Of a stretch of DNA of 64,000 nt, positions 3,039-34,480 are shown piece after piece. The DNA lies in the NCBI GenBank assembly GCA_963720265.1, contig CAVRET010000002.1, positions 1,006,069-1,070,068 of the forward strand. The letters run 5' to 3'. The notes beneath the pieces were generated by a model. That model had not been told where the DNA came from, searched no databases, and saw nothing but the letters and a program-made list of their open reading frames with translations. Made by a program: the position numbers and the translations under genes. Within the stretch, counting starts at the first letter, position 1, and each line of letters starts with the position of its first letter. The DNA comes from an uncultured bacterium. Lineage in GTDB: Bacteria; Patescibacteriota; Saccharimonadia; UBA4664.

Positions 3039-4180
3039 CTGCTTACGATATAAAGCCAAAAATCGTTATCTCTTCCTATGATGACATTAAGAATCCGTAC
3101 TACGGCGGGGGAGGTGCTCGTTCCATTCATGAAGTCGCCAGTCGGCTTGCTCACAAGTTTGATTTCTTGATTCTAACGGCGAATTATCCGGGTGCAAAAA
3201 GCCAGGTGCTTAGTGGAGTTGAATACAAACGCATCGGGCCGGCTTTCATTGGCCCCAAATTTGGCCAGCTTCTCTTTCATGTAATGCTGCCATTTTACGT
3301 ACGTTCACTTGAGTACGATCTCTGGATCGAAAATTTGACTCCGCCGTTTTCCACTTCGTGCCTGCAGCTCTATACCAAGAAACCAGTAGTCGGCCTCGTA
3401 CATATGCTTGCAGCGGAGGACATGGAGCGCAAATACAAGTTACCGTTTCACCTTATTGAGAACCTCGGACTCCGCACCTATCGCTACTTCATCACGCCGG
3501 CAGAGATAACTGCTGCCAAATTGGCACACCTGAGTCACCAACCCCGTACTTTTACCATTCCCAACGGGCCCATCGGCGTCGACCAGCCATTAGCTAGCCT
3601 CAAGTCTCCTGTTAAAAAAGACTATATCCTGTATCTTGGCCGCTTGGAGGTAAATCAAAAAGGACTGGATCTCCTCCTGACATCCTTTAAGAAATGCGTT
3701 GAGACATCCCCTTGTCGGCTTGTCATCGCCGGTTCCGGCACGCCTAAGGAAGAGCAGAAAGTGCGGACGCTTATCAAAGAGCTTGGCCTGATCCGGAAAG
3801 TGAAACTCATTGGCCAGGTCGAGGGTCGGCGCAAACAGCAGCTGTTAGGAAGCTGCCAGGCGATGGCCGTACCGTCTCGACTTGAAACGTTTGGCATGGT
3901 TGCTCTTGAAGCCATGCATTACGGTAAGCCGGTTGTAACATTCGATATCCCAGGCTTTCAGTGGATTCCAGAAGGCTGTGCTCTTAAGGCAACCGCTTTT
4001 GACACTGACGCCTATGCCGCTGCCATGACCAGAGTCTTAACGGATAAAGGTTTGAAAAAATCGGTTGCAGTAGCCGCAAGACAGTCGATGCCCAACTATT
4101 CCTGGGATAGGATCGCGACGCGGTACTCACGCACGATTATCCAATTACTCAAAACTCCGGAGGCAGAGTATGGAAAATGA
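3035..4180 (+). CDS. glycosyltransferase family 4
   Basis: 381 aa. Glycine-rich N-terminal motif YYGGGGARS and C-terminal ETFGMVALEAMHYGKPVV (EX7E). The ATGA start/stop overlaps the upstream gene, indicating an operon. Confidence 0.8.
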   Translation: MTAYDIKPKIVISSYDDIKNPYYGGGGARSIHEVASRLAHKFDFLILTANYPGAKSQVLSGVEYKRIGPAFIGPKFGQLLFHVMLPFYVRSLEYDLWIENLTPPFSTSCLQLYTKKPVVGLVHMLAAEDMERKYKLPFHLIENLGLRTYRYFITPAEITAAKLAHLSHQPRTFTIPNGPIGVDQPLASLKSPVKKDYILYLGRLEVNQKGLDLLLTSFKKCVETSPCRLVIAGSGTPKEEQKVRTLIKELGLIRKVKLIGQVEGRRKQQLLGSCQAMAVPSRLETFGMVALEAMHYGKPVVTFDIPGFQWIPEGCALKATAFDTDAYAAAMTRVLTDKGLKKSVAVAARQSMPNYSWDRIATRYSRTIIQLLKTPEAEYGK

Positions 4181-4931
4181 CATGCTTGAACGTATTCGCA
4201 CATCGAAGCGCACCTGCTACTTTGTTTCGCCCCATCTTGATGACATGGTCTTTTCGGCCAGCGCACTTGCTACTGAGCTTGCGAAAACCAACCGCATTGT
4301 AGTCGTAAATGTTTTCACCGACACTCCGACGGGCCCCAATACCCGTTCTGCCGCGGCATATTTAAAACAATGCGGCTACAACGATGCTGAGGCACTATAT
4401 CAGAATCGCCGAGATGAGGATGTACGAGCACTTGCAGGGCTTGCGGATGAAATCATAAACCTGGCTATGACTGAGGCGTTATGGCGCCGCAAACCTGGTA
4501 GGCTCGCAAGCCTTATAGCTAGGCTGCTCCCCGAGCTGGCCGCCCTCTATCCAACCTACCGCTGGCACATCATAAAGGCCAAGCTGTCACGGCATGATAG
4601 ACAAACCGTTGACCTGATCAGGCAAAAACTAGGAGAGGTCATTGGGTCGGACGCCTTTGTTTTTTGTCCGCTTGGCGTAGGCAACCATATTGATCATGTG
4701 ATTACGAGTGCCGCGTGCGACGCGATGTTCGATAGCCCCATCCACTGGGTTGATTTCCCGTACTCAGCACGAGGTGACAGCAAGTCTACCACCGGCCTCG
4801 AAGGGTTCTCATTCAATGGCGACAGTCAGGAGAAGCTTTCCCGGATGCAAAAGTACGAAACTCAATACAGTACCATCTTTCCGAACGGTGCCGTATTGCA
4901 ACCTGAAGAGTATTTCGTGCGCACAGCGTAG
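4170..4931 (+). CDS. PIG-L/LmbE family N-acetylglucosaminyl deacetylase
   Basis: 253 aa with VSPHLDDMVFS (PHxDD motif) and HIDH (HxDH) motifs of the LmbE-like zinc deacetylase family. Overlaps the upstream GT4 gene. Confidence 0.7.
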   Translation: MENDMLERIRTSKRTCYFVSPHLDDMVFSASALATELAKTNRIVVVNVFTDTPTGPNTRSAAAYLKQCGYNDAEALYQNRRDEDVRALAGLADEIINLAMTEALWRRKPGRLASLIARLLPELAALYPTYRWHIIKAKLSRHDRQTVDLIRQKLGEVIGSDAFVFCPLGVGNHIDHVITSAACDAMFDSPIHWVDFPYSARGDSKSTTGLEGFSFNGDSQEKLSRMQKYETQYSTIFPNGAVLQPEEYFVRTA

Positions 4932-5628: not shown

Positions 5629-6729
5629 TTAATTACTTACAGCATCAGTCGCGATGCGGTATCGGCGCCCAGCCACAGTCCAGCCCGGTTTGACCGTGCG
5701 GAACTTGCGCTGGACGACGATTTCGAACCACGCCCTGAAGAAAGCAAATAGGTTAGCAAGCCGTAGAAAGTAAAACAGCGGGAAGGCACCAATGACATCT
5801 GCCCTACGGTTGAGGATGGCGGCCCACAGCGTGAGGGCGAAGAAGATCACGAAGTCATTGAGGAACATGAGTGCGAGCGGCTTGTAGTCATGCGTCAGAA
5901 TCCCGACGACCGGCAGGACGGTGAGCTCTAACAATAAGACGATTTCCTCTAGGATCATGTAGGCCATATAGGCATCGAGCTTATGCGGACGAAGCCCGAC
6001 CCGATGCCGGATCATGGCCTGCCAGGCACCGCGATACCAGCGCATAATCTGTTTGAAATAGTCGGCAAAGTCTTTGGGGTCTTGGGTAAAGGCCTTGGCC
6101 TGGGGGATGTAGGCGATGCGTCCAAGCTTCTTCCGGTGAATCTGAATGGTAATATCCATATCTTCGGTCAGCGAGTGGACAGCAAAATCGAGTTTGTCGA
6201 TGATATCAGTGCGCAAAACGCAGGTAGCACCGGGGATGACCGGAATGGTGTTAAAGAAGTTTTGCACCCGGCGCATGACTTCGAGACCGAGCGTGTATTC
6301 GTAGAGCCGGTATTTGCTGATCCACTCACCTTTTAGGCTTTGGAGGTGGCCGGTCGCCGCCACGAACTTATCGGCATCGAGGCGCTTTTTAAGCTCACTA
6401 AAATACGTCGGCGCAAACGTGCCGTCAGCGTCAGCGATGTGCACCCAAGTGTAACGTTCAGGGATTTTAAAGTATTTGAGGCCGTTAGAGATCGCCATAG
6501 CCTTGCCGGTTTGAGCTTGGTCGAGCACGTTGTATGAGCTTAGGTATTGCCAGGCAATGGCAACGGTTTGGTCAACCGAACCGTCACTGACAACATAGAT
6601 GTCACAGGCTTCTTGGCCAGCAGCTAAAGCCGAGCGAATGGTATCACCAAGAACCACCTCTTCGTTGTGGGCGGGAAGGATGAGGGCAAGTTTACGCTTG
6701 TGTTTAATTGTGATCTCGTATTGGTCCAT
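5629..6729 (-). CDS. processive GT2 glycosyltransferase (cellulose/chitin/PNAG-synthase-like) with C-terminal TM helices
   Basis: 366 aa. ILPAHNEE...VVSDGSVDQT (GT2 DXD region), TED motif and QIMRWYRG (QxxRW). C-terminal hydrophobic helices. Confidence 0.75.
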   Translation of the reverse strand: MDQYEITIKHKRKLALILPAHNEEVVLGDTIRSALAAGQEACDIYVVSDGSVDQTVAIAWQYLSSYNVLDQAQTGKAMAISNGLKYFKIPERYTWVHIADADGTFAPTYFSELKKRLDADKFVAATGHLQSLKGEWISKYRLYEYTLGLEVMRRVQNFFNTIPVIPGATCVLRTDIIDKLDFAVHSLTEDMDITIQIHRKKLGRIAYIPQAKAFTQDPKDFADYFKQIMRWYRGAWQAMIRHRVGLRPHKLDAYMAYMILEEIVLLLELTVLPVVGILTHDYKPLALMFLNDFVIFFALTLWAAILNRRADVIGAFPLFYFLRLANLFAFFRAWFEIVVQRKFRTVKPGWTVAGRRYRIATDAVSN

Positions 6730-7009
6730 CGCGCAAATTAAAACAGCGAGGGGCGAATTATCTTCGCACTACCCTCGCTGATCTTTTTACTGAATATAAG
6801 TGTATATGATTATGCTTAATTTGTCAATAGGTTGTTTAGTGTCGCTGTTTATGCCTTATTATAGGTATAATCTTCGAACTCTACGACGTTTTTTGCCTGC
6901 TTATAATTACGGTCTGAGCTCATTTTTATTAGCTCTAATGATATCAATATCTACGTGTGTCAAGACATGTGGCCGGGTACGGACTTTCCCGTACCCGGCC
7001 ACTCGTTGA

Positions 7010-8035
7010 CTACCTCTTCCACCAGGTTGAAGCCCGGATGGTCCGAACAGCCTGCTTGATGGCCCGCAATTGGCCCGGATCGTTCATGTTGTCCATATAG
7101 GAGTAGAACAACAGGTTGCGAACGCCGGCTTTCACCGCGAGCTTGGCCATCTTCACCATTTGCCGAGCGGTCGGAGGCGCTGGATCAGCCGGGAAGCCGA
7201 GGGCGGCCCCTTCCGGGTGCATGACTCGATTCCAAGCGAATGCCTGGACTACGAACCAAGTATTTTTGCCTGCCGCAGCGCGGAGTGCCCGGCCAATCGT
7301 GGTGATGGCGCTGACGGGACCGTAGGTCGCACTGGCCGGTATCGGGTAGTAGTCGATGCCTAGTTGGTCCGTTGCCTGCGCTATTTGCTGGTAGTAATCC
7401 GTGCTGCCCGGCGACCAGTCGAGAACCACGAGCGTCGGCTTGTGCGTCAGTCGTTGGATCTGGCGCTGCCGCGCCTGGATGGCCGGCAGCCATTGGCTGA
7501 GATTACTTGGGTCGGTCGGCTCTTCATCTGAGGTATAGAATCCCCAGACGGCCGGGTTAGCGGCATAGGCTTTCACGATCCCGCTAACCTCTGCCGTTGT
7601 GCTGGCGCCGTATTGGCGGTGCCAGCCGGCGTCGGTCGGATCCTGGTCGGTCGGGCCGAGCAGGTCCTTTACCGAGAGAATCACCTTCATGTGCAGGCTC
7701 TGGGCCAATGCAAGGTAAGCTATGACCGCTTGCGGCGTGGCGTTGACGCTGGAGTAGTTGAGCAGGAGGTTGAAGCCTGCCTGACTCGCATACTCCAGCT
7801 CGGCCTGGGCGGTAGGCGTTCCCGGCACGGCCGAGCCGTAGATGCCAAGCAGCCGTGAAGACCCAGCTTGAATCTTGGGCGCGGCCACCGGCGCCGAGTG
7901 CGTGGGCGAAGCGGCAGCGGTACGCATGATCGTTGGCGGTGAGCTGGGAACTGAAGTCCCGCCGCAACCACTGATCAGCGCAGCACCTACCAACAGCGTT
8001 ACGCCCGTTAGTGTGAGGCTCGTGACGCGAGGCAT
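7010..8035 (-). CDS. secreted lipoprotein, putative TIM-barrel glycoside hydrolase-like (paralog A)
   Basis: 341 aa. Lipobox LISGC after a signal peptide. Shares NPAVWGF..DE.P....L..W, LDYYP and LLxYSY motifs with the divergent neighbour at 8180-9289. Confidence 0.5.
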   Translation of the reverse strand: MPRVTSLTLTGVTLLVGAALISGCGGTSVPSSPPTIMRTAAASPTHSAPVAAPKIQAGSSRLLGIYGSAVPGTPTAQAELEYASQAGFNLLLNYSSVNATPQAVIAYLALAQSLHMKVILSVKDLLGPTDQDPTDAGWHRQYGASTTAEVSGIVKAYAANPAVWGFYTSDEEPTDPSNLSQWLPAIQARQRQIQRLTHKPTLVVLDWSPGSTDYYQQIAQATDQLGIDYYPIPASATYGPVSAITTIGRALRAAAGKNTWFVVQAFAWNRVMHPEGAALGFPADPAPPTARQMVKMAKLAVKAGVRNLLFYSYMDNMNDPGQLRAIKQAVRTIRASTWWKR

Positions 8036-8075
8036 GAAACACCTTCGGTATCTGGTAGGGTTGGGTTGTTAAACC

Positions 8076-8104
8076 TTATTATTATATTATATTATATTAT
8101 TATG
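8076..8104. repeat. AT microsatellite (TTATA/ATTAT)n in a divergent promoter region
   Basis: ttattattatattatattatattattatg, seen directly in the sequence. Confidence 0.8.
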
Positions 8105-8109
8105 CTATT

Positions 8110-8129
8110 TGTCAACTTTTAGGTTGACA
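8110..8129. promoter_or_regulatory. perfect 7-bp inverted repeat TGTCAAC-N6-GTTGACA. It can equally be read as two divergent -35 hexamers (TTGACA on each strand) serving the paralogous genes 7010-8035(-) and 8180-9289(+).
   Basis: Palindrome seen directly. TATAAT-like -10 elements lie 17-18 nt away on both sides (inside the microsatellite for the minus gene; TATGCT at 8148 for the plus gene). Confidence 0.45.
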
Positions 8130-8179
8130 CGTCATCTGGGGCCAGCCTATGCTGGGTTGGCTACTAGCGGGGGAAATGG

Positions 8180-9289
8180 ATGCACATACCAACAAGCGGG
8201 CGGGGTTTCGGGATATGGCTTGCCGTAATTGCAGTCATTTCAGCCGGTTGCGGTGTCGCCAGTGCCGAGGTCGTTGCCGGCATTAGTAAGCAGTACAAAA
8301 CGGCAGTTGCGATAAAAGCTACTACCGCAAACTCGCGCACCCGGGTTATAGCCATTGCTAAGGCATCGCCTGCTGCATCCGGTCAGGTTTTGGGGGCCAG
8401 TACACAAGCTACCAAGGTAAATACAGGAGCAACCTCAACGCCAATGCCTAATACGATCACTCCGCAATACATCGGTATGTTTGTCACAAGCTCACCGAAC
8501 GATCCGGCAAGCCGTACAGTGATTGATGCCGTGGCTGCCACCGGCTGCAATTTGGTCTACAACTACACGGCTTTTGACGGTACACCGGCCCAGGTTGAGG
8601 CGTATTTGAACTATGCCGGTTCCAAAGGGATTAAGGTGATTATTGGGCTGCAAGATCTGTACGACCAGTTGCCGAATGGCGCACAGACAGCCCAAACGTA
8701 TGCCCAGTACGGCAGCACGAATGACGCGATTGCTACAACTGTCGTACGGGATTTTCAGGCGAACCCAGCAGTGTGGGGGTTTTCGATTACGGATGAACGC
8801 CCGGAATCAGCGACCGATCTTGGTACATGGCAGCCGATTCTCGCGTCCCGCTACGCTGCGATCAAGCAGCTTACGGCCAAACCAGTCATGGCCGTTCTCG
8901 AGGGATGGAGCGACGGCAACGCCAGTGGGCGTCAGGAGTTGTTTCAGGGTGTGGCCGGTAGTGCCGACGCCCTGGCGCTTGATTACTATCCAGTGCCGTT
9001 TATGCCGCTTGCACGTATTGGAACGATTATGAATGAAGCCGCACCCTACAAAGGCGGATGGTTTATTGAGCAGGTCTTTAGCTGGTCGTCATATCCCGAC
9101 GTTATCCAGGGCCTGGGCTATAACCCGTCAGAGGCCAGACCGCCGAGTGCAGCTGAGATGGTTGCCATGGGCCGGGACGCCCTGGCCGGTGGGGCGAGGA
9201 ATTTGCTCTTGTATTCGTATTTCGATATCGCTAGCAATCCCGGCCAGTTGGACCTCGTGCGGCAGGCCGTGCAGGAGCTCAAAAACTAG
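8180..9289 (+). CDS. secreted putative TIM-barrel glycoside hydrolase-like protein (paralog B)
   Basis: 369 aa. N-terminal signal/TM and S/T-rich linker. Motifs shared with 7010-8035 (QANPAVWGFSITDERP, LDYYPVPF, LLLYSYFD). Confidence 0.5.
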   Translation: MHIPTSGRGFGIWLAVIAVISAGCGVASAEVVAGISKQYKTAVAIKATTANSRTRVIAIAKASPAASGQVLGASTQATKVNTGATSTPMPNTITPQYIGMFVTSSPNDPASRTVIDAVAATGCNLVYNYTAFDGTPAQVEAYLNYAGSKGIKVIIGLQDLYDQLPNGAQTAQTYAQYGSTNDAIATTVVRDFQANPAVWGFSITDERPESATDLGTWQPILASRYAAIKQLTAKPVMAVLEGWSDGNASGRQELFQGVAGSADALALDYYPVPFMPLARIGTIMNEAAPYKGGWFIEQVFSWSSYPDVIQGLGYNPSEARPPSAAEMVAMGRDALAGGARNLLLYSYFDIASNPGQLDLVRQAVQELKN

Positions 9290-22939: not shown

Positions 22940-23051
22940 ACCTAAGACCTTATGGCTGAGTATGCAGGTTATGAACAATAACAGTTGACCAGACTATATT
23001 TTTGACTAAGTTCGAATTTTTAGCTTGGCTGGGGCGATAGCATTCGAACTG

Positions 23052-23441
23052 TTATTTTTTGTCGGCTATAGAATGTCGCTGAATCCACCCCGCTACTTCG
23101 GCTAAGTCTGGGTGACTCGTAGCCAGATTGAGTGTATATTCTTCAAGCTCTTGATTGGTGGCCGTTAGATCATAGCCATTTATAACGAGGAAGCGGTACA
23201 TGGAGACGACTGCAGTGCGCTTATTGCCGTCGAGGAAGACGTGATAATTACAAAGGGCCTCATATAGCGCCGCCGCTTTTGCAAATATATTGGGATATAA
23301 GTCTTGACCGCCGAAGCTGGCCTTGGGCTTCTGTGCAATAGATTTGAGCAGCTCAGGCTCGCGGACACCAAGAGAGCCACCGGTGGCCTCAATGATCTGG
23401 TCGTGTATGGCCGCGATGTCGGTGGTTTCAAGGTGCCGCAT
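23052..23441 (-). CDS. doc: Doc/Fic family toxin
   Basis: 129 aa. Fic motif HVFLDGNKRTAV (HxFx(D/N)GNKR). Confidence 0.85.
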   Translation of the reverse strand: MRHLETTDIAAIHDQIIEATGGSLGVREPELLKSIAQKPKASFGGQDLYPNIFAKAAALYEALCNYHVFLDGNKRTAVVSMYRFLVINGYDLTATNQELEEYTLNLATSHPDLAEVAGWIQRHSIADKK

Positions 23442-23668
23442 TACTTGTCAGCTAAAGCTTTAAGCGCGGGTCGATAGCGGTCAATGGCTTGGGCTGTCCA
23501 AGCAGTGAGTTCTTCGTCGACCGAGACAGAATCGGTGACCGGTACGAGACGAAAGATCGGCTTGGAGCGCTTAACAACTATAAAAGTTTCGCCGAGACCA
23601 GCGCGCTCTGCGACAGCCTCGGTGTTTTCTCGCAGTTCTTTGAGCCCGATAATAGTAGTCATAATCAT
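23441..23668 (-). CDS. phd: Phd/YefM-type antitoxin
   Basis: 75 aa. Overlaps the doc start by 1 nt. Typical small antitoxin fold signature (IGLKELRENTEAV...IVVKRSKPIFRLVP). Confidence 0.7.
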   Translation of the reverse strand: MIMTTIIGLKELRENTEAVAERAGLGETFIVVKRSKPIFRLVPVTDSVSVDEELTAWTAQAIDRYRPALKALADK

Positions 23669-23894
23669 ATTCTCGTTATGTTTACGTAAAGTTTATCTTA
23701 AAAGTCACTTTATGTCAAGAAAGGTGTACGGAATACTCCTTGGCTGGGAGTCTGGTCGGATTTCCGCACTATTGACATAGCCGTTAGCGAATCATCAATA
23801 CTACGCATCAAGAGCCCGACGATATTGAGGTCAATGTGGAGCAAATCCGCGAGTTGCTCGATGAAGATGATCAGGCCAGGGAGGAGGGCTCGAC

Positions 23895-24380
23895 ATGCTA
23901 AGTCAACTCCTCCGTCGATCTCAGGCTCCCTCGCCCGAGCTGGTAACTTCAAAGCTGTTTAACGAGAGTTCATTTTACGATACTTTTCTTAAGGGTTTAG
24001 AGAAGTGTCACAGTGAGATGATAATCGAGTGCCCGTTCATAGTTTACCGACGAGTGGCAACGTTATTGCCGGTCATGCGGAAGCTGAAGGCTCTACGCGT
24101 GAGGATCGTTGTCAACACCCGAGACCCGCAGGAACATGACGCGGACCGCCGGGAAGATGCGCACGCGGCCCTAGCTTACCTGCAGCACATCGGAGTCCAC
24201 CTTGTATATACCGCCGTGCATCATCGTGAGCTCGCGGTACTAGATCGAAAAATACTGTACGAAGGCAGTTTGAATATTCTCTCGCAAAATAACAGCAGCG
24301 AAATAATGCAAAGCATTGAATCTGTGGGGCTCGCGTGGCAGATGGTACGGTTTGTAGAGCTTGATAGACTGATCAGGTAG
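23895..24380 (+). CDS. PLD-superfamily (HKD-like) small protein, possible nuclease, with a variant motif
   Basis: 161 aa. HHRELAVLDRKILYEGSLN reads as H-x-R-x5-D-x6-G-S-x-N, i.e. the HKD motif with K replaced by R and one extra residue. Confidence 0.45.
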   Translation: MLSQLLRRSQAPSPELVTSKLFNESSFYDTFLKGLEKCHSEMIIECPFIVYRRVATLLPVMRKLKALRVRIVVNTRDPQEHDADRREDAHAALAYLQHIGVHLVYTAVHHRELAVLDRKILYEGSLNILSQNNSSEIMQSIESVGLAWQMVRFVELDRLIR

Positions 24381-24563
24381 ATTAGGCCGGAAGTGTTCTG
24401 CTTTAAATGTCCACGCATTGCCCTGGGAAGTCATAGCTGGTACTATGCACGCCTACCGTCGCTAGTTTAAACGGAGGGTGCCAAGAGGAGTAGCAGGTGC
24501 CCGCATGCGACTTTCGCTAACTTTAGAAAAGATATTCGGTACCTCGCCCCTTTGATTCGAAGA

Positions 24564-24941
24564 CTAAGAAGTTCCTACAACAGTTATGCCATACTGCTCA
24601 AGAAATATGTCGCTTGTAAGTAGTGCACTTCTTTCTACGCTGGCCTGGGCGACAAGCATTCGATCAAATGGGTCGTGGTGAAGCATTGGTAATGATTCGA
24701 AGGCGCGCAAATAGCTGTCGGCTAGCGAAAGTCGACGAAATCCAAGGTTGCGTACCGTTTCAAGCAATTCAGGGATTGGAGCGAGCTTAGAAGTAGAGAT
24801 CTTGATAGATATTTCCCACAGTGAAGCTTCCGAGATTGCAATTTCCTGAGCGCCTTCAATCGCTCGTCGCGCAGCCACCCCAAGTCGTTCGTCATCGTCT
24901 AGTATCCACAGCAGAGCGTTGGTATCTAGGATTAGCTTCAT
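24564..24941 (-). CDS. vapC: PIN-domain toxin VapC
   Basis: 125 aa. LILDTNALL N-terminal Asp plus further acidic residues typical of PIN. Confidence 0.85.
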   Translation of the reverse strand: MKLILDTNALLWILDDDERLGVAARRAIEGAQEIAISEASLWEISIKISTSKLAPIPELLETVRNLGFRRLSLADSYLRAFESLPMLHHDPFDRMLVAQASVERSALLTSDIFLEQYGITVVGTS

Positions 24942-25192
24942 TACGGTTTGTTGGTGCTTTCCTGAAACAGCTGCAAGATCTCCACGTCCGCTTTATCGTA
25001 GTCGTCAGAGTATTTGATTTTGCCCTTCAGCGCCCCGAACAATTTGATTTTACTTGGCTCCTCAAGCGGCTGGAGCTTGAAGCGCGTCACCTTGCCCCCA
25101 CGACGAGTAATGATTACCTCATCACCCTCAGCGGCTGCGTTCAGAAGCTGGCTAAGATTCGTTTTTGCCTGATGTACGTTTGCGGTAGTCAT
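24941..25192 (-). CDS. vapB: type II antitoxin (Phd/YefM-like) paired with VapC
   Basis: 83 aa. MTTANVHQAKTNLSQLL...EVIITRRGG. Stop/start overlap with vapC. Confidence 0.7.
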   Translation of the reverse strand: MTTANVHQAKTNLSQLLNAAAEGDEVIITRRGGKVTRFKLQPLEEPSKIKLFGALKGKIKYSDDYDKADVEILQLFQESTNKP

Positions 25193-25441
25193 GCTTAAAT
25201 ACTAGCTAGATTAGCTAGTTAAGTCAACTCACGTGTGGCGATAAGTTCTTTGGCTGGGGACATCGTTCTTGATTCAAACTCCACGGTCTCGCCCAAAGAA
25301 GCGGGCGCGATGGGACGCCCAGCTCGCGATAGGTGTGCGACACAATGCCAAGACGAATCATTAACCCGTCTTATAAACAGATAAGGTGGGGTGTTGACCC
25401 CCACCTTATCTGTTTATATTGGATTTTACTTACTTTCTCAC

Positions 25442-25987
25442 TTAGTCTGTCTCGCTCGGATCGTAAATCCCGAAACAGTATTCCCCGGAGTGATTTAGGT
25501 AGAACGAGGTACCGTTTGAAAATCCACCAGGTGCCAGGTATCCTCCCCAGTGGATATTTTTGAACGCAACTCCTTCACCACTACTGCAGGTCGATATCTT
25601 GAAGTTGGTTCCCCAGCCCCCACTGTTACTATTCGTCGGACACTGGTCGAGCCCGGTGTCGGCGTTGCCGGAGTTATTATTGAAGTCACCTACGCAAAAG
25701 CCATTGTAATTACCGCCACCAACAAACTCTAAGTAGCCGTTGCCATTGCTTAAGGTGTTTTGGCTGAACTCGTCGTTGGGTACCGCCCCCATGTTTGTGA
25801 AGACATTCACCTCGGGCCCACCATACCACGCGTTTAGGCATGCATTAGTGGTGCCATTATTCACGCAATACTGCAGGGCAGAGTTCGTCGCCAATGCGGG
25901 ACTCGCTCCCAGGGCTATTAATGTACCCATTGGCAGAACAATAGCAGTAGCGATTACCGCAAATTTAGTTCTTATTCTATGAAACAT
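25442..25987 (-). CDS. small secreted Cys-containing protein, possible beta-trefoil/lectin-like
   Basis: 181 aa. Signal peptide. Gly/Asn-rich with paired Cys. Confidence 0.4.
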   Translation of the reverse strand: MFHRIRTKFAVIATAIVLPMGTLIALGASPALATNSALQYCVNNGTTNACLNAWYGGPEVNVFTNMGAVPNDEFSQNTLSNGNGYLEFVGGGNYNGFCVGDFNNNSGNADTGLDQCPTNSNSGGWGTNFKISTCSSGEGVAFKNIHWGGYLAPGGFSNGTSFYLNHSGEYCFGIYDPSETD

Positions 25988-26207
25988 AGACTCCTCCTTG
26001 TTTACTCTACCCTTCCTGTCACTCGAACTTAGTCGCTAGTATTCTGAGAAATTCCTTGGCTTCGGGCTATGGTTCTTATTACAAATCTTTGACAATGTAT
26101 TCGAGCTGGACGGCAGGGTTCGGACACGCGTAGCATGGGGCTGAACGCTTGACATCCATCAACCAAAAACTGTATAGTTTCGAATAAACATAAGAGTTAT
26201 AAAACAA

Positions 26208-27059
26208 ATGCCCAGAAAAACCACCGCCCGCAGTTCCAGGTCGAGACCATCCACTCGCAAAGTGTTTAATAAAGCGTTACTCGCCAGGTTTCGTGGCCGT
26301 TTGTTTACGAGGACTTCGCTGGCGATTTTTTTGGGTCTTTTCGTCGTTATTGGCGCCTACCTCGTGTATAGCGTTAGCCGCGCCTCGTCGGAGCAGCTTG
26401 AATCCGGGGTCAATGGCAATCAAAGTCCTTCATACTGCCTGGATGACACCGGTGGCGGTACTGTGCGCACTGCGGCGTGCAACGGTATGTACGGCCAACA
26501 ATATAGTCTCGTCGGTGATGTCATCCACCTAGGCGGCTATTGCCTCGGGGTATCTGGTGCCAACTCTACTTCAATAGGTAGGTTTCTTGTGGCGGACGGT
26601 TGCTCGCCAACGCCGTGGGGCGCCGTATGGACCCCAAGCGGCAATCGGTTGTTAGATAATCACGCCGATGCTCTCGGCCATGGAACACAATATTGTCTCG
26701 ACGTGTCCGGAAATGTCGCCGGGCACAATGTAGATATTTGGCCTTGCAACGGCGGTTCAAACCAGAACTGGTACGAACAGGCCGTTGGCGGCGGAAGCGG
26801 CGGTAACACACCCCCCGTTACGCCCAAGCCGACCACGCCTGGTCCATGCACGATAGACTGGTATGGAGTGCAATTACCTTGCCAAAGTAGTTTCAATCTC
26901 TCAAGCTATAGCAGTTCAACATCATACAACAGTACTCTCTGTGTTGATCTTCGGGCCTACGAATTTGCTAGCAATAACGCGATCACGCTTCTTGGTCTAA
27001 CGTACGACTCGGCCATATCGCGATACCCAAACTGCTTTAACGCAAATTCATTCCGATAA
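26208..27059 (+). CDS. secreted ricin-B (beta-trefoil, CBM13-like) lectin domain protein
   Basis: 283 aa. N-terminal TM/signal. Repeated C-L-D-x-sn-G...IW.C-NGG-x-NQ-x-W subrepeats (YCLDDTGG..., YCLGVSG..., YCLDVSGNVAGHNVDIWPCNGGSNQNW). Confidence 0.6.
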   Translation: MPRKTTARSSRSRPSTRKVFNKALLARFRGRLFTRTSLAIFLGLFVVIGAYLVYSVSRASSEQLESGVNGNQSPSYCLDDTGGGTVRTAACNGMYGQQYSLVGDVIHLGGYCLGVSGANSTSIGRFLVADGCSPTPWGAVWTPSGNRLLDNHADALGHGTQYCLDVSGNVAGHNVDIWPCNGGSNQNWYEQAVGGGSGGNTPPVTPKPTTPGPCTIDWYGVQLPCQSSFNLSSYSSSTSYNSTLCVDLRAYEFASNNAITLLGLTYDSAISRYPNCFNANSFR

Positions 27060-27564
27060 AGATACATCTTCAAGCGGTTAGGTATCTTGAGGGTTCGCTA
27101 AAAGATTGAAGCCAGTTCGTTTGCATGCCTAAGACCGATGAAAGAGGGCTTGTCAGCCCTAAGGGCAGAAAAAGGTTCAACCGCTAGATTTACAGATGGG
27201 AAATCGTGAACTTGAACCCATTCGTACCATGAGGCTGGGGCTACGGGACGTTATCCGAACCTCGCCCTTTTAGGGCATTCGCTCGTCAGCCCATTCAAAA
27301 GTGGTTTTAAAATCATCCACGGAACGATATGTCATTCGCGAAATGGCCTCCCACTCGGGTCGCGTGAATAAGGGAACATAAACTATTACTTCTTCATGGG
27401 TGTCATGATGATGCGCGAGCCAATAAGTCAATAAAGTAGTTCCGGATGCTCTTTGTGCCGGTAAACTCCGGGTTTCATTTCACTAGTATATCAAGCCAAA
27501 AACTAGCGGAGGTGTGCTGTCCCCGGGGTGGCGTGGCAGCCGGGCCCCGGGGTCAGCGACTAAC

Positions 27565-29374: not shown

Positions 29375-29776
29375 TTGGTTTTTGCCTTGCTTGTGCTATT
29401 GTCTTGCCTATTAGCTTCGAGTGAGGACTATCTCGTGAAACGAATTCTCAGTCTGCCGTATCTGTCCGTGTTGGCCGCGTTTGCTGCGCCCTTGTTTACG
29501 GCGCACGGGGCGCTTGCGTCGGATGGTAATGTGACACAAGTCGAGACCTTTATCCGCAGTCTGATCAACGTGGTCACGGGGCTAGCCGCCTTAATTGCAG
29601 CCGGCTTCTTTGTGGTAGGAGGGCTTGGTTATATCACGAGTTCCGGCAACCCCGAGCATCTGGAGCGTTCAAAGCGGACGCTACAATATGCAGCCATAGG
29701 CCTTGCCATTACTCTCGGGGCATTTGTTCTTACCGGTATTGTCGCAGGCCTCGCTACAAGCGCGTTCGGAAGCTAG
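29375..29776 (+). CDS. VirB2/TrbC-like T4SS pilin (likely true start GTG at 29435, giving a signal peptide MKRILSLPYLSVLAAFAAPLFTAHGALA)
   Basis: Signal peptide plus two TM helices. Central motif GLGYITSSGNPEHLERSKRTLQYAAIGL resembles the TrbC/VirB2 family. First gene of the T4SS-like cluster. Confidence 0.6.
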   Translation: MVFALLVLLSCLLASSEDYLVKRILSLPYLSVLAAFAAPLFTAHGALASDGNVTQVETFIRSLINVVTGLAALIAAGFFVVGGLGYITSSGNPEHLERSKRTLQYAAIGLAITLGAFVLTGIVAGLATSAFGS

Positions 29777-29781
29777 CTTTT

Positions 29782-31182
29782 ATGGCCTTTTTCGCATCCG
29801 GCCCGGTGCTTGCAAGTATGGCCGGGGCGACACGGGTCATCGGCGCGTATGTAACACCGGTTATGACGGTGCTTGGTGGCTTTGCTGCGGTGGCGGCAGC
29901 GCTGCTTTTGGCTTACGGCGGCATCCGATATATGACGAGTTCCGGCAGCCCGGAGCGGCTTGATGAGGCGAAGCGCGTTATCCGTAATGCCTTAATTGGC
30001 CTCGGAGTTGTGATAGCGGCCGGGACGCTGGTTGCCGTTCTTGCGCACGCCTATGGCAGTCCCGCTGCGAGCGGCGGGGCGAAGCTGCCGGCTCTTGTTT
30101 CGGTGCAACCTGCACCAACTACGAACGGCCTGGTGAATGCCCTGATTGATGCAGTCACGGGGTTGTTTCGCGTTTTGATCGACCAGGCGGCACAGCCGTT
30201 TTTGTCAGCTCTGGCCTACTTCACGGATGGGACGCCGCTCATGGCTTCTAATGGAAGCGTGTTTTCGCTGTGGCTGGCTACGGTTGCCATCGCGGACGGC
30301 TTGTTTGTACTGGTTACGGCGTGCTTGGGATTTCATATCATGAGCTACGAAATGTTTGGGACGACTGAGCTTGAGTTTAAGCACATGCTGCCTCGGCTGG
30401 CCCTCGTATTCGCGGCGGTGAACACATCGATCTTTGCGATTGATGCGGTTATCGGGTTGTCCAACGTTATGATTTCGGCCGTCAGACAAGCTTTTCCAGG
30501 GGTGTCGGTGTGGCAGTCGCTTAGTACGGTTGTGAGCGCAAAAGGTGATGTGAGTCTGGCCGCCCTTTTGATTATGGTGGCGTTTTTGGTGCTTTCCGTC
30601 ATGCTCATGGTGTATTACGTCATGCGGCTCGTAGCACTGTTTATCGGGGCGGTCCTTGCGCCGATTGTTATTTTGCTGTGGCTTGTGCCGGGATTTAAAA
30701 GTTTTGCTGAAGCGGCCGCAAAGGTCTACGCCTCGACCATCTTTGTTTTGTTTGTACACGTCGTAATATTAGAGCTCGCGGCATCATTGTTAAGCGGTAT
30801 GGCGGCAAGTAGTCCAGATCATACCTTAAATCCCCTTATGTCGATGATCGTGGGCGTAGCAACGGTCCTGGCACTACTCAAAACTCAAGGTTTTATGAAC
30901 CAATTGTCGTATGTGAGTCTGGGCCCGCAAACGGCGGCGAAGCTGGGCGGTTTATTTATGAATGCGTTTAGCTACTATGCCGGCAAGTCGGCCGGTGCGA
31001 CTTCTAATCCGGCTTCAGAGCGCACCTCGCGGCGGGGCGTATGGCCGGATTTCGGATTTGAGCCGAGTCCGGCACCGACACTGGCACTGGTACCGGTGCC
31101 GCAGACTACCCGGCCGGGTACGGCACGCAGCGGGCGACCTAGTTCCGGGGGAAACGTACCAGAAGAAGGAGAAACAGCGTGA
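29782..31182 (+). CDS. VirB6/TrbL-like polytopic membrane protein with an N-terminal VirB2-like pilin domain
   Basis: 466 aa. The first ~100 aa repeat the pilin architecture (GGIRYMTSSGSPERLDEAKRVIRNALIGLG is similar to the upstream pilin motif). At least 6 further TM helices and a hydrophilic C-tail. Confidence 0.6.
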   Translation: MAFFASGPVLASMAGATRVIGAYVTPVMTVLGGFAAVAAALLLAYGGIRYMTSSGSPERLDEAKRVIRNALIGLGVVIAAGTLVAVLAHAYGSPAASGGAKLPALVSVQPAPTTNGLVNALIDAVTGLFRVLIDQAAQPFLSALAYFTDGTPLMASNGSVFSLWLATVAIADGLFVLVTACLGFHIMSYEMFGTTELEFKHMLPRLALVFAAVNTSIFAIDAVIGLSNVMISAVRQAFPGVSVWQSLSTVVSAKGDVSLAALLIMVAFLVLSVMLMVYYVMRLVALFIGAVLAPIVILLWLVPGFKSFAEAAAKVYASTIFVLFVHVVILELAASLLSGMAASSPDHTLNPLMSMIVGVATVLALLKTQGFMNQLSYVSLGPQTAAKLGGLFMNAFSYYAGKSAGATSNPASERTSRRGVWPDFGFEPSPAPTLALVPVPQTTRPGTARSGRPSSGGNVPEEGETA

Positions 31183-31658
31183 GATCGTCGATTGTTCCGG
31201 CCCAGATTACCACGGTTGAAGATAAGGTGGCGGGGGCTTTAAGCTTTTCGCAGCTGGGACTCCTTGGTGCTCCAGTATTTCTGGCCGGTGTCATGTATGC
31301 CTTGCTGCCACCATTTTTCGCCGCGTCACCATATAAGCTGGCCGGTTTTTTCGCTGCTGCCGTTATATGCGGTGTGCTTGCGATCCGGGTGCGCGGACAA
31401 CTTGTGCTTACGCAAGCCGTCCGATTTGGGCGGTATAGTCTCAGGCCGCGTTTTGTCTTGTATGACAAGAACGACCTGTATCTCAGGCCCGAGCCGGTAC
31501 CGGATGCGCGCCCAGAAGTTACCCAGTGGTTATCCGAAGCGGATGAAGAGCATGCGGCTGCTCAGCGTCAAGCGGTCGTGTTCTATGAGCGGCCGACTCG
31601 CGGCCGCACTGACCACATCAGTCAAGGAGGACGGCGTGTCCGCACTACCCAAAAATAA
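31179..31658 (+). CDS. VirB3/PrgI-like small membrane protein
   Basis: 159 aa with two TM helices. Immediately upstream of, and overlapping, the VirB4 N-fragment, as is typical for VirB3 ahead of VirB4. Confidence 0.4.
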   Translation: MRSSIVPAQITTVEDKVAGALSFSQLGLLGAPVFLAGVMYALLPPFFAASPYKLAGFFAAAVICGVLAIRVRGQLVLTQAVRFGRYSLRPRFVLYDKNDLYLRPEPVPDARPEVTQWLSEADEEHAAAQRQAVVFYERPTRGRTDHISQGGRRVRTTQK

Positions 31659-32244
31659 CCGCTCATCGAGGCGGCAGATCCGGATCCAGGATGTGCGCGA
31701 CGGGATCCTTATGCTGCCGGATAACAACTACCGGGTAATCCTTGCGGCTTCGTCGCTTAACTTTGAACTTAAAAGCGAAGACGAGCAGGACGCTATTATC
31801 GATGCGTTTAAGAGCTTCTTAAACTCGCTGCCGTGCCCGGTGCAGTTGCTCGTACGCACGCGCGAGCTTGATGTTGCCCGGTACCTGGACGGGTTTCGTG
31901 AACTTGAGGGCGCAGAGAGTGAAGGCGTCTACCGGGCGCAGATTGCCGGATACCGGGCGTTCGTACAAAGCCTGGTTTCAAACAACAAGATCCTTGCGCG
32001 GCGGTTTTACGTGGTAGTCGGCCGGACGGCCACCGACAAGGAATCGTTTGAAGCGGCTGGCGAGCAGCTTATAACCGACGCCGATATCGTAGCAAAGGGC
32101 TTAAGCCGGCTAGGCATTCAGACGCACCGCCTGACAAGCCTTGAGGTACTCAATTTGTTTTATAGCTTTTACAGTCCCGATGGCGCCAAGCGACAACCGC
32201 TGACGCCTCTTATCATGCAGACGCTTCGAGATGGGTACTTGTAA
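31636..32244 (+). CDS. VirB4-like ATPase, N-terminal fragment. Start inferred at GTG 31636 with AGGAGG 5 nt upstream; the track ORF 31264-32244 starts too early.
   Basis: RQIRIQDVRDGILMLPDNNYRVILAASSLNFELKSEDEQDAIIDAFKSFLNSL matches the VirB4/CagE N-domain. Ends at TAA 32242-32244, in the same frame as the downstream ATPase ORF. Confidence 0.55.
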   Translation: MSALPKNNRSSRRQIRIQDVRDGILMLPDNNYRVILAASSLNFELKSEDEQDAIIDAFKSFLNSLPCPVQLLVRTRELDVARYLDGFRELEGAESEGVYRAQIAGYRAFVQSLVSNNKILARRFYVVVGRTATDKESFEAAGEQLITDADIVAKGLSRLGIQTHRLTSLEVLNLFYSFYSPDGAKRQPLTPLIMQTLRDGYL

Positions 32245-32250
32245 GGGGAA

Positions 32251-33990
32251 ATGATGGAACGGTTTTACGAAAGATTTACGTTTAAAAAGAGACCTACTTC
32301 CACCGTAGGGCGCCGGCAGGCGCTCGCTAACGGCGAGCAGGACGTCATGGATATCATCTCCTATGCCGGGATGGAGGAGCGGGCTGGCTATCTTGTCATT
32401 GACGGGCGGTATGTGCGGACGCTGTTTATCTCCGGTTATCCTTATGTCGCGACATCGGGATGGCTTGGTAGTCTCGTCTCGTTTAACCACAACGCCGATA
32501 TCACGTATCACATGACGGCTGTTGCGGCAGCGCAGGCGTTGCCCAAGCTGCACCGCAAAATTACGGAAATGGAATCAACCAGACGGGCCATGATTCGGGC
32601 CGGTAAGATCGTGGGGGCGGAACTAACGGACCCGCTCGAGTCGGCCATGGAACTTAGGGACAAGATTATGCGCGGGCAGGAGAAGTTGTTTCAGGTGTCG
32701 ATTTATGTGGCGCTGTCCGAGGCCAGTTTGTCCGAGCTTGATAGGGTGACGAGACTGCTTGAAACAGAGCTCGGGGCGCGGCTGTTTTACACGAAGGTGG
32801 CGAGGTATCAGCAGGCTGAAGGGCTGCAGTCGGTGCTGCCTAGAAGCGAAAACGTGCTGGCCCAGCGCAGGAATTTGGATAGCTCAACGGCGGCTTTGAC
32901 ATTTCCGCTCGTGTCATCTGAGCTCGTACAGGAATCAGGCATTTTATACGGGGTCAACAAGTCCAACAACTCGCTTGTCATTCTTGATAGGTTTAGTTTG
33001 CACAATGCCAACAGTATTGTATTTGCACAGTCCGGCAGCGGTAAGAGCTACGCCACTAAGGTGGAGATTTTACGGCAGCTTATGCAAGGCGTGCGGGTGA
33101 TCGTGATTGACCCGGAACGGGAATATAAGCTGCTCGCCGATTCGGTCGAAGGATCATATATCAAGCTGTCGGCCAGATCCAGCGCCAAGATTAACCCGTT
33201 TGATCTTGCAACAACTGTCACTTTGGCTGATCATGTGACGGAACACATTCAGGAACTGACTGCAGTCATCTCGCTGATGGCGGACGGTCTTAACGCGCGG
33301 GAGAAAGCCGCGGTGGATAAGGCCTTGGTGCGGGTGTATAAAGCCTGCGGCAAGCTGACTCCCCTGTTGGGTGATTTGTATGACGAGTTTAAGCGGCAGG
33401 GGCAAGAGGCGTTATGCGAGCGGCTCGACAAATACCTTACAGGGTCTTTGGCCGGTATCTTTAATGAGCAAACTAACATCAGCCTCGATAACCGGCTGGT
33501 GGTATTTGATATCAAGGACCTGCCGGAATCAATACGCCAGATCATGATGATGATCGTGGCAAATTTCGTGCAAAACGAGGTTAAAGCCAGACCTGCGAAG
33601 CGGATGCTTGTGATTGATGAGGGCTGGTTGCTTTTGGAACATGAAGAGAGTGCTCGGTTTGTGACGGGTCTTGTCAGGCGCGCCAGGAAGTATTACCTCG
33701 GCGTTTCGATTATTTCGCAGCAGGCCAGCGACTTTTTGCGCAGTGACTGGGGCCGCGCGATTGCTTCTCAAAGTGCGCTTAGGATTTTAATGCGGCAGGA
33801 TACGACAACGATTCGGCAAGTGGCTCACGAGTTTAACTTAAGCGAGTGGGAGCAGAGTTTTCTTTTAACCTGCGAGCGCGGGGATGCGCTTATGATCGCC
33901 GACCAGAACCATGTAGCGGTGAGGGTCGTTGCGTCGGATAAAGAACATCCGCTTATTACGACGAATCCGGCCGAGGTATACCGGCATTGA
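32251..33990 (+). CDS. virB4: VirB4/TrbE-like T4SS ATPase, C-terminal (NTPase) portion
   Basis: 579 aa. Walker A AQSGSGKS. Walker B-like hhhhDE (RMLVIDEGW). AAGGGGAA SD 5 nt before the ATG. Confidence 0.85.
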   Translation: MMERFYERFTFKKRPTSTVGRRQALANGEQDVMDIISYAGMEERAGYLVIDGRYVRTLFISGYPYVATSGWLGSLVSFNHNADITYHMTAVAAAQALPKLHRKITEMESTRRAMIRAGKIVGAELTDPLESAMELRDKIMRGQEKLFQVSIYVALSEASLSELDRVTRLLETELGARLFYTKVARYQQAEGLQSVLPRSENVLAQRRNLDSSTAALTFPLVSSELVQESGILYGVNKSNNSLVILDRFSLHNANSIVFAQSGSGKSYATKVEILRQLMQGVRVIVIDPEREYKLLADSVEGSYIKLSARSSAKINPFDLATTVTLADHVTEHIQELTAVISLMADGLNAREKAAVDKALVRVYKACGKLTPLLGDLYDEFKRQGQEALCERLDKYLTGSLAGIFNEQTNISLDNRLVVFDIKDLPESIRQIMMMIVANFVQNEVKARPAKRMLVIDEGWLLLEHEESARFVTGLVRRARKYYLGVSIISQQASDFLRSDWGRAIASQSALRILMRQDTTTIRQVAHEFNLSEWEQSFLLTCERGDALMIADQNHVAVRVVASDKEHPLITTNPAEVYRH

Positions 33991-34480
33991 CGCCCAAGTC
34001 ATCATTGCCGCGGTCTCATTTAAACGCGAGATCCGGGTTGTTCTCATAACGCTTGGCGTACTGATGGCACTTCCTATTATTGTGCTTTCAGCCGCGACCA
34101 ATATTGTGGCGCTGGCAAGCCCAGGTGTTAGTTTGTATACGGGACCGGTATCCACGACCGACACCTATGCGTTCGGCAACTGCACATACTGGGTGGCATT
34201 GAGGCGCGAGCAGACCGGGCATCCGATTCCAAATACCTGGGGTAATGCCAACACCTGGGCGATTCGGGCTCAAGCAGACGGATACACGGTAGATCATACG
34301 CCTTCTATGGGTGCGATTATGCAAACCACGGCTGGACAGTTCGGGCACGTGGCCTTTGTTGAAAGCGTGGGTGCAGACGGCAGCTGGACGATTTCAGAAA
34401 TGAATTATGACGGGTGGGACGAGGTGGACAGCCGGACGCTTACAGCAGTCGCAGCTTCCCAGTTTTCTTTTATCCACTAA
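33929..34480 (+). CDS. CHAP-domain peptidoglycan hydrolase (T4SS-associated cell-wall hydrolase); N-terminal TM; start uncertain
   Basis: FGNCTYWVALRR (catalytic Cys) ... GHVAFVESV (His) ... EMNYDGWD. Overlaps the end of virB4. Confidence 0.8.
   Translation: MRRIKNIRLLRRIRPRYTGIDAQVIIAAVSFKREIRVVLITLGVLMALPIIVLSAATNIVALASPGVSLYTGPVSTTDTYAFGNCTYWVALRREQTGHPIPNTWGNANTWAIRAQADGYTVDHTPSMGAIMQTTAGQFGHVAFVESVGADGSWTISEMNYDGWDEVDSRTLTAVAASQFSFIH

Follow-up and report, generated by a model that had tools for sequence, protein, structure and literature searches.

A probable native two-gene VirB4 in the type IV secretion operon of a Saccharibacterial genome

We describe here a locus in a 64,000-nucleotide stretch of DNA (the window) from an uncultured bacterium of the Saccharimonadia (Patescibacteriota; UBA4664), corresponding to positions 1,006,069 to 1,070,068 of the forward strand of contig CAVRET010000002.1 (GenBank assembly GCA_963720265.1). 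The locus encodes a type IV secretion system (T4SS) of the Gram-positive type, with overlapping genes in the order pilin, VirB6-like, PrgI/VirB3-like, TrsD-like, VirB4 and CHAP hydrolase (Table 1). The VirB4 ATPase is here divided between two adjacent open reading frames (ORFs), ORF1 (the TrsD-like protein) and ORF2 (the ATPase). An earlier note on this DNA had described the pair as a VirB4 gene divided by an in-frame stop codon, and had offered a genuinely split protein, a recent nonsense mutation and programmed readthrough as possible explanations.

Table 1. Features of the T4SS operon, in window coordinates
Feature	Position	Strand	Length	Basis
VirB2/TrbC-like T4SS pilin gene	29435..29776	+	113 aa	Pfam T4SS_pilin 1.2e-10, TrbC 4.2e-09; gene call in L001
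VirB6/TrbL-like membrane protein	29782..31182	+	466 aa	Pfam T4SS_pilin at residues 25-87 (5.9e-07, above cut-off)
PrgI family (VirB3-like) gene	31179..31658	+	159 aa	Pfam PrgI 5.3e-06, 27.3 bits, cut-off 27
ORF1, TrsD-like / 'TraC-like' protein	31636..32244	+	202 aa	profiles, precomputed PF26593, hhalign, fold search, colinearity
Shine-Dalgarno-like AAGGGGAA	32243-32250	+		sequence; overlaps ORF1 stop codon, abuts ATG 32251
ORF2, VirB4-family ATPase without first N-terminal subdomain	32254..33990	+	578 aa	NCBIfam, Pfam, 4AG5 and TrsE alignments
CHAP-domain peptidoglycan hydrolase (VirB1-like role)	34064..34480	+	138 aa	Pfam CHAP 2.2e-19

Direct reading of the sequence places the start of ORF1 at a GTG, preceded by AAGGAGGA, and its stop at the TAA in positions 32242-32244. 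The stop is followed by GGG GAA and then by two consecutive ATG codons, at 32251 and 32254, from which ORF2 is open to the TGA at 33988-33990 (579 and 578 aa, respectively); the two ORFs share one frame and are spaced by two codons, as the earlier note had stated. The same note had started ORF2 at ATG 32251, with a Shine-Dalgarno sequence 5 nt upstream. The Shine-Dalgarno-like AAGGGGAA is indeed present, but the end of its G-run lies only 2 nt from ATG 32251, and the 5-nt distance applies to ATG 32254. Because of this better spacing, ATG 32254 is the more plausible start; it is also the one picked by the automatic gene caller, and it aligns with the ORF2 start of L002, the nearest of the in-frame relatives. 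A second assembly of the locus (Logan ERR11523669, here L001) has the identical junction and differs from the window by 1 base across 13.9 kb, at ~34460 and far from the junction; the TAA is therefore reproducible, with the proviso that the two assemblies may share reads and may not be independent. A sequencing error at the TAA was rejected on this evidence, and is moot given that the split is kept in other genomes.

ORF1 is a free-standing homologue of the first ~190 residues, that is, the first subdomain, of the VirB4 N-terminal domain. It matches positions 11-171 of the 752 positions in the NCBIfam model of CD1110, a full-length VirB4 of Clostridioides (E 2.5e-10), and positions 30-199 of 201 in the NCBIfam TrsD/TraD model NF041427 (E 2.8e-5). 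Its AlphaFold model (pLDDT 77.5) retrieved TrwK/VirB4 chains as the top 14 PDB matches (E 4e-4 to 6e-3), and these were the sole significant ones, the next match being unrelated and at E 0.03; a search of the PDB with the ORF1 sequence gave no matches, even at E<=10. In an alignment of 60 ORF1 sequences 46 columns are invariant, a sign of selection on a separate protein. An internal duplication relating ORF1 to the N-terminal part of ORF2 was also considered; the two have similar secondary-structure patterns, but hhalign gave a probability of 1.1% and the idea was abandoned.

ORF2 opens with a tail of ~30-45 residues, variable among relatives and predicted with low confidence, followed by the second part of the N-terminal domain and a RecA-like ATPase domain with the Walker A core GSGKS. 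The Walker A (AQSGSGKSYA) and Walker B (LVIDEGW) motifs of a P-loop NTPase can both be read in the translation, at invariant columns of the alignment, and Pfam matches include P-loop_TraG, AAA_10 and DUF87. Against NF045971, the NCBIfam model of the CD1110 family, ORF2 scores 341.1 bits, above the whole-protein cut-off of 325, over positions 180-732 of 752. It does not hold a complete N-terminal domain in one polypeptide; profile positions 11-171 come from ORF1. Residues 226-567 can be aligned (E 2e-34) with the C-terminal ATPase domain crystallised from T. pseudethanolicus VirB4 (4AG5), and residue 252 aligns with TrwK residue 445. Since residues 1-225 precede the region aligned with 4AG5, the break falls within the N-terminal domain of VirB4, following the first ~190-200 residues, rather than at the linker joining that domain to the C-terminal one. 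The division proposed in the earlier note, with the N-terminal domain in one ORF and the NTPase in the other, must be redrawn to this extent, and its idea of a break in the inter-domain linker is given up.

Together, ORF1 and ORF2 are colinear with full-length VirB4 proteins (TrwK of R388, PDB 7O41/8RTB; Clostridioides CD1110, over the two intervals given above; 4AG5), and their combined length is that of a normal VirB4, as had been supposed. The full-length proteins differ in being one polypeptide where this locus has two. Natural fusions make the same comparison at closer range. A 734-aa protein (P0290), encoded at 6001-8205 of locus L085 on a 728-kb metagenomic contig (ENA), joins a TrsD-like part to VirB4; its source is presumably a Patescibacterial relative. 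Residues 9-196 of ORF1 correspond to its residues 7-187, and residues 34-575 of ORF2 to its residues 199-732 (55% identity). Apart from the fusion, the P0290 operon has the same order as the window's, running pilin, VirB6-like, PrgI, fused gene, M23 peptidase and a gene like that of a type IV coupling protein. The existence of this fused gene implies that a fission or fusion occurred within or near the Patescibacteria. Likewise, in a 754-aa protein of the Carboxydocella plasmid pCCELLA01, ORF1 residues 1-199 correspond to 1-198 and ORF2 residues 46-572 to 199-744. The fused proteins lack any equivalent of the ~30-45 residues with which ORF2 begins. These fused VirB4s argue that ORF1 and ORF2 together still amount to one VirB4.

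The split is a conserved trait of the clade. The best 120 ORF1 homologues are 202-210 aa long (54-65% identity), with two exceptions, a fragment of 177 aa and a 291-aa protein, while the best 120 ORF2 homologues are all 576-596 aa (74-80% identity), with no full-length protein of ~780 aa among them. An exhaustive phmmer search with ORF1 as query, across 1.84 billion cluster representatives, produced 2216 matches; of the best 150, 147 are shorter than 500 aa and the others measure 548, 628 and 734 aa. The junction itself was surveyed in 80 Saccharibacteria loci, made up of 79 other genomes and L001, the Logan copy of the window locus (L004, which has no upstream flank, was left out). In all 80, virB4 has a TrsD-like ORF directly upstream, and every related locus examined keeps the split, at amino-acid identities of 50-65% for ORF1 and 72-80% for ORF2. 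The genuinely split, two-polypeptide VirB4 that the earlier note had listed among its options is thus the one that the relatives bear out.

The geometry of the junction varies among these loci in an informative way. The two ORFs are in different frames in 77 of the 80, and the genes overlap in ~63, by 4 nt (ATGA) in 34, 8 nt in 16, 11 nt in 7 and 1 nt in 5. In 67 of 76 loci, the ORF2 start is preceded at 4-18 nt by a Shine-Dalgarno-like tetramer, which usually lies within the last codons of ORF1. These features point to two separately initiated genes that would be translationally coupled. The in-frame layout is confined to the window locus, L002 and L044, which make up three of the 14 non-overlapping junctions, where about one-third would be expected by chance. 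The shared frame is therefore coincidental, and neither it nor the TAA has functional meaning in the window genome; the weight that had been placed on the in-frame arrangement was undue. In one locus (L009, ~3300-4216; DASXEX010000002.1), the TrsD-like ORF lacks the usual stop, runs ~85 codons longer and overlaps virB4 in another frame, reflecting either an indel in the metagenome-assembled genome or a real C-terminal extension.

A comparable arrangement is found on the staphylococcal plasmids pSK41 and pGO1, whose transfer systems belong to the pGO1 subclass of mating-pair formation class FATA (MPF-FATA). In both cases a remote homologue of the VirB4 N-terminus of ~200-230 aa stands immediately upstream of a VirB4-like ATPase, and the neighbours include genes for a pilin-like and a VirB3-like protein and for a CHAP hydrolase. 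The pSK41 order of trsB (pilin-like), trsC, trsD (227 aa), trsE (672 aa, DUF87), a membrane protein and a CHAP protein parallels that of the window operon. The ORF1 family profile aligned with pSK41 TrsD in hhalign with a probability of 89.8% (E 1.8e-6), and residues 28-558 of ORF2 align with residues 31-617 of TrsE (E 1e-37). Because ORF2 residue 28 corresponds to TrsE residue 31, the split is at the same place as that between trsD and trsE. ORF1, a ~200-aa homologue of the VirB4 N-terminus directly upstream of a VirB4-like ATPase, is accordingly a Patescibacterial homologue of TrsD, an assignment made from remote homology plus position. The two systems differ in that identity is very low (19% for TrsD over 148 profile columns and 24% for TrsE), and in that pSK41 is a conjugative plasmid with a relaxase and a coupling protein whereas the Saccharibacterial system sits on the chromosome and, to judge from the literature, probably does not serve conjugation. 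Split triplets of PrgI, a 'TraC family' protein and an ATPase are present on B. thuringiensis BTB_502p and C. botulinum pCBG as well.

Within the Patescibacteria, the pairing of TrsD and VirB4 is already known. In their survey, Quinonero-Coronel et al. (2025, Microb Genom 11:001409; PMC12102498) describe TrsD as a remote homologue of the VirB4 N-terminus and as the most abundant T4SS component in the group, with 2,272 homologues of which 1,664 adjoin virB4, and they note that its homologue in Ca. Southlakia epibionticum ML1 is on record as essential, for which they refer to Wang et al. 2023 (Cell). A 2025 FEMS review likewise treats the Patescibacterial T4SS (PMC12857230). The window locus comes from the same group (Saccharimonadia) and has the same adjacent pair, the same partners (VirB2-like pilin, VirB6 and PrgI/VirB3) and apparently the same TraC-like/TrsD signature as the systems in that survey (PMC12102498); nothing substantive differs, and the window represents another genome of the kind described there. 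The junction geometry, with its overlaps and frames, and the fused Patescibacterial variant are reported here and are not described in the passages of the survey drawn on.

Domain boundaries around VirB3 and the VirB4 N-terminus are fluid in evolution, as illustrated by VirB3-VirB4 fusions in some conjugative systems, such as those of Campylobacter plasmids cited in the survey (PMC12102498). These fusions are the opposite event, fusion rather than fission, and none is present in the window; the survey reports none in Patescibacteria. One protein from a JGI metagenome (P0242, 357 aa, on a 1527-bp contig) is an apparent fusion of PrgI (VirB3-like) and TrsD. Its residues 1-111 are 41% identical to the window PrgI and residues 161-356 are 48% identical to ORF1; coming from a single contig, it could be either a real fusion or a frameshift error.

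The best explanation of these results, and very probably the correct one, is that the locus is the normal two-gene form of VirB4 in the Gram-positive-type (MPF-FATA-like) T4SS of Saccharibacteria, with the two genes translated separately. ORF1 carries the first subdomain of the VirB4 N-terminal domain, and ORF2 the remaining N-terminal domain plus the ATPase domain. Both would be translated, each on its own, from one operon mRNA, with ORF2 initiating from its own Shine-Dalgarno sequence at or inside the 3' end of ORF1. Translational coupling would then lead to roughly 1:1 synthesis of the two products, which may associate non-covalently into a VirB4-like protomer and hexamer. The TrsD-like piece would form the membrane-proximal N-terminal part and dock on PrgI/VirB3. 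In cryo-EM structures of VirB3-VirB4 from R388, the membrane-proximal N-terminal part of VirB4 reportedly contacts VirB3.

Several observations weigh against this two-gene explanation. ORF1 scores 24 bits against NF041427, for which the curated cut-off is 200, so that its link to TrsD is one of remote homology and position rather than membership in that family. The local Pfam-A scan assigned ORF1 to no family; precomputed matches to PF26593 (TraC-like) exist for the identical protein P0001 and nearly all ORF1 homologues, and the mismatch probably comes from a version difference. The ORF2 model, built from a shallow alignment (72-79% identity) and kept out of the fold search, has a mean pLDDT of 57.6, too low for placing the split on a structure at the level of single residues. 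Finally, that the two polypeptides bind each other is an inference.

How do the alternatives fare? Suppose that a recent nonsense mutation (or a sequencing error) at 32242 had split a contiguous virB4, leaving a young pseudogene or a lesion rescued by re-initiation. Two ORFs in one frame, two codons apart, are compatible with such an event, as is the occurrence of fused VirB4 in a more distant relative (P0290) and on a Firmicute plasmid. When relatives are checked for a contiguous gene, however, the opposite is found among the close ones: every close relative examined is split, mostly with ORF2 in another frame and with overlaps that point mutation could not create, and the comparative data exclude a recent nonsense mutation. 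The absence of full-length proteins among the best 120 ORF2 homologues, the 46 invariant columns of ORF1 and the identical junction in the second assembly argue in the same direction. Instead of the contiguous close orthologues and relaxed constraint expected of a pseudogene, the close orthologues are all split and both pieces are strongly conserved, and we give this explanation virtually no credence. Programmed readthrough of the TAA, yielding a VirB4 of ~785 aa beside the two separate products, is physically possible in the window genome, L002 and L044, where the ORFs share a frame across a two-codon spacer. It is difficult to see how it could be a conserved mode of expression, which the out-of-frame position of ORF2 in 77 of the 80 loci, usually in overlap with ORF1, excludes. 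The chance-level frequency of in-frame junctions leaves no conserved in-frame ORF, and the ORF1 stop can be any of the three codons (TAA in 35 loci, TGA in 35 and TAG in 10). TAA is generally the least leaky stop in bacteria. Scans of the whole window for tRNAs and Rfam elements were negative, so that no known RNA element lies at the junction. Moreover, the fused relatives join ORF1 residue ~190-199 straight to ORF2 residue ~34-46, whereas a readthrough product would carry an extra insert of ~35-45 aa. Readthrough, which the earlier note had also raised, is very improbable.

The remaining alternative accepts that the genes are separate and places the ORF1 product outside the ATPase protomer, as an independent T4SS accessory factor derived from the VirB4 N-terminus (for example, an assembly chaperone or a PrgI/VirB6 adaptor, with a stoichiometry of its own). 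Considering that ORF1 diverges faster than ORF2 (50-65% versus 72-80% identity), that many of the distant ORF1 homologues are 220-470 aa long and carry extra sequence, and that there is one apparent PrgI-TrsD fusion (P0242), some independence from VirB4 can be imagined. According to the survey, moreover, TrsD has no assigned function and the TrsD homologues of Gracilibacteria do not adjoin virB4 (PMC12102498). Nevertheless, the fused forms that a Patescibacterial relative and Firmicutes carry at the same place in the operon argue that the piece is still the VirB4 N-terminus, and the tight overlap and coupling with ORF2 in most loci suggest co-assembly. We consider an independent role unlikely.

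The genes around the pair are also tightly packed. The VirB2-like pilin gene is the first recognisable gene of the operon. The prgI start overlaps the stop of the VirB6-like gene by 4 nt (31179-31182), and the end of prgI extends 23 nt into ORF1 (31636-31658); such packing throughout the T4SS core is in keeping with translational coupling along the operon. The VirB6/TrbL-like protein has a TrbL match at residues 226-366 (1.6e-4, 21.9 bits) that falls under the cut-off of 25.9, and a weak TrbL_3 match; its T4SS_pilin-like segment lies ahead of the TrbL domain, a combination that recurs in L085. The sole difference between the two assemblies is in the CHAP hydrolase gene, where positions 34458-34460 read CCC in the window and CC in L001. 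It alters the C-terminal tail of the protein (138 aa in the window, 159 aa in L001); an indel introduced by assembly or sequencing in one of the two is the probable cause. Just upstream of the operon, at ~23000-27100 of the window (L001 1417-5424), lie a Fic-domain gene and a PIN/PhdYeFM toxin-antitoxin pair, together with a ricin-B-lectin-domain protein (26208-27059), a stretch that may represent mobile or accessory DNA next to the T4SS.

A more speculative version of the two-gene explanation, which we regard as doubtful, is that the split is not neutral and that the free TrsD-like subdomain acts as a separable docking or assembly module connecting the ATPase ring to PrgI/VirB3 and the pilin-VirB6 protein, perhaps with a different stoichiometry or timing. 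Lineages might toggle between fused, split and PrgI-fused forms (as in P0290, the window locus and P0242) and thereby tune T4SS assembly in epibiotic Patescibacteria. More exotic still would be the idea that the in-frame TAA of the window genome allows a minor fusion product by readthrough.

As regards TrsD and VirB4, the window locus adds nothing to what the 2025 survey contains (PMC12102498). The T4SS itself is biologically important, being reported as indispensable to a cultivated Saccharibacterium for growing as an epibiont. The locus carries a caution for annotation: a VirB4 that appears to be interrupted by a stop codon in Saccharibacteria or other Patescibacteria should be read as a native TrsD + VirB4 pair, not as a pseudogene or a recoding site, and the same holds for plasmids of the pSK41/pGO1 type and for several plasmids of Bacillus and Clostridium.

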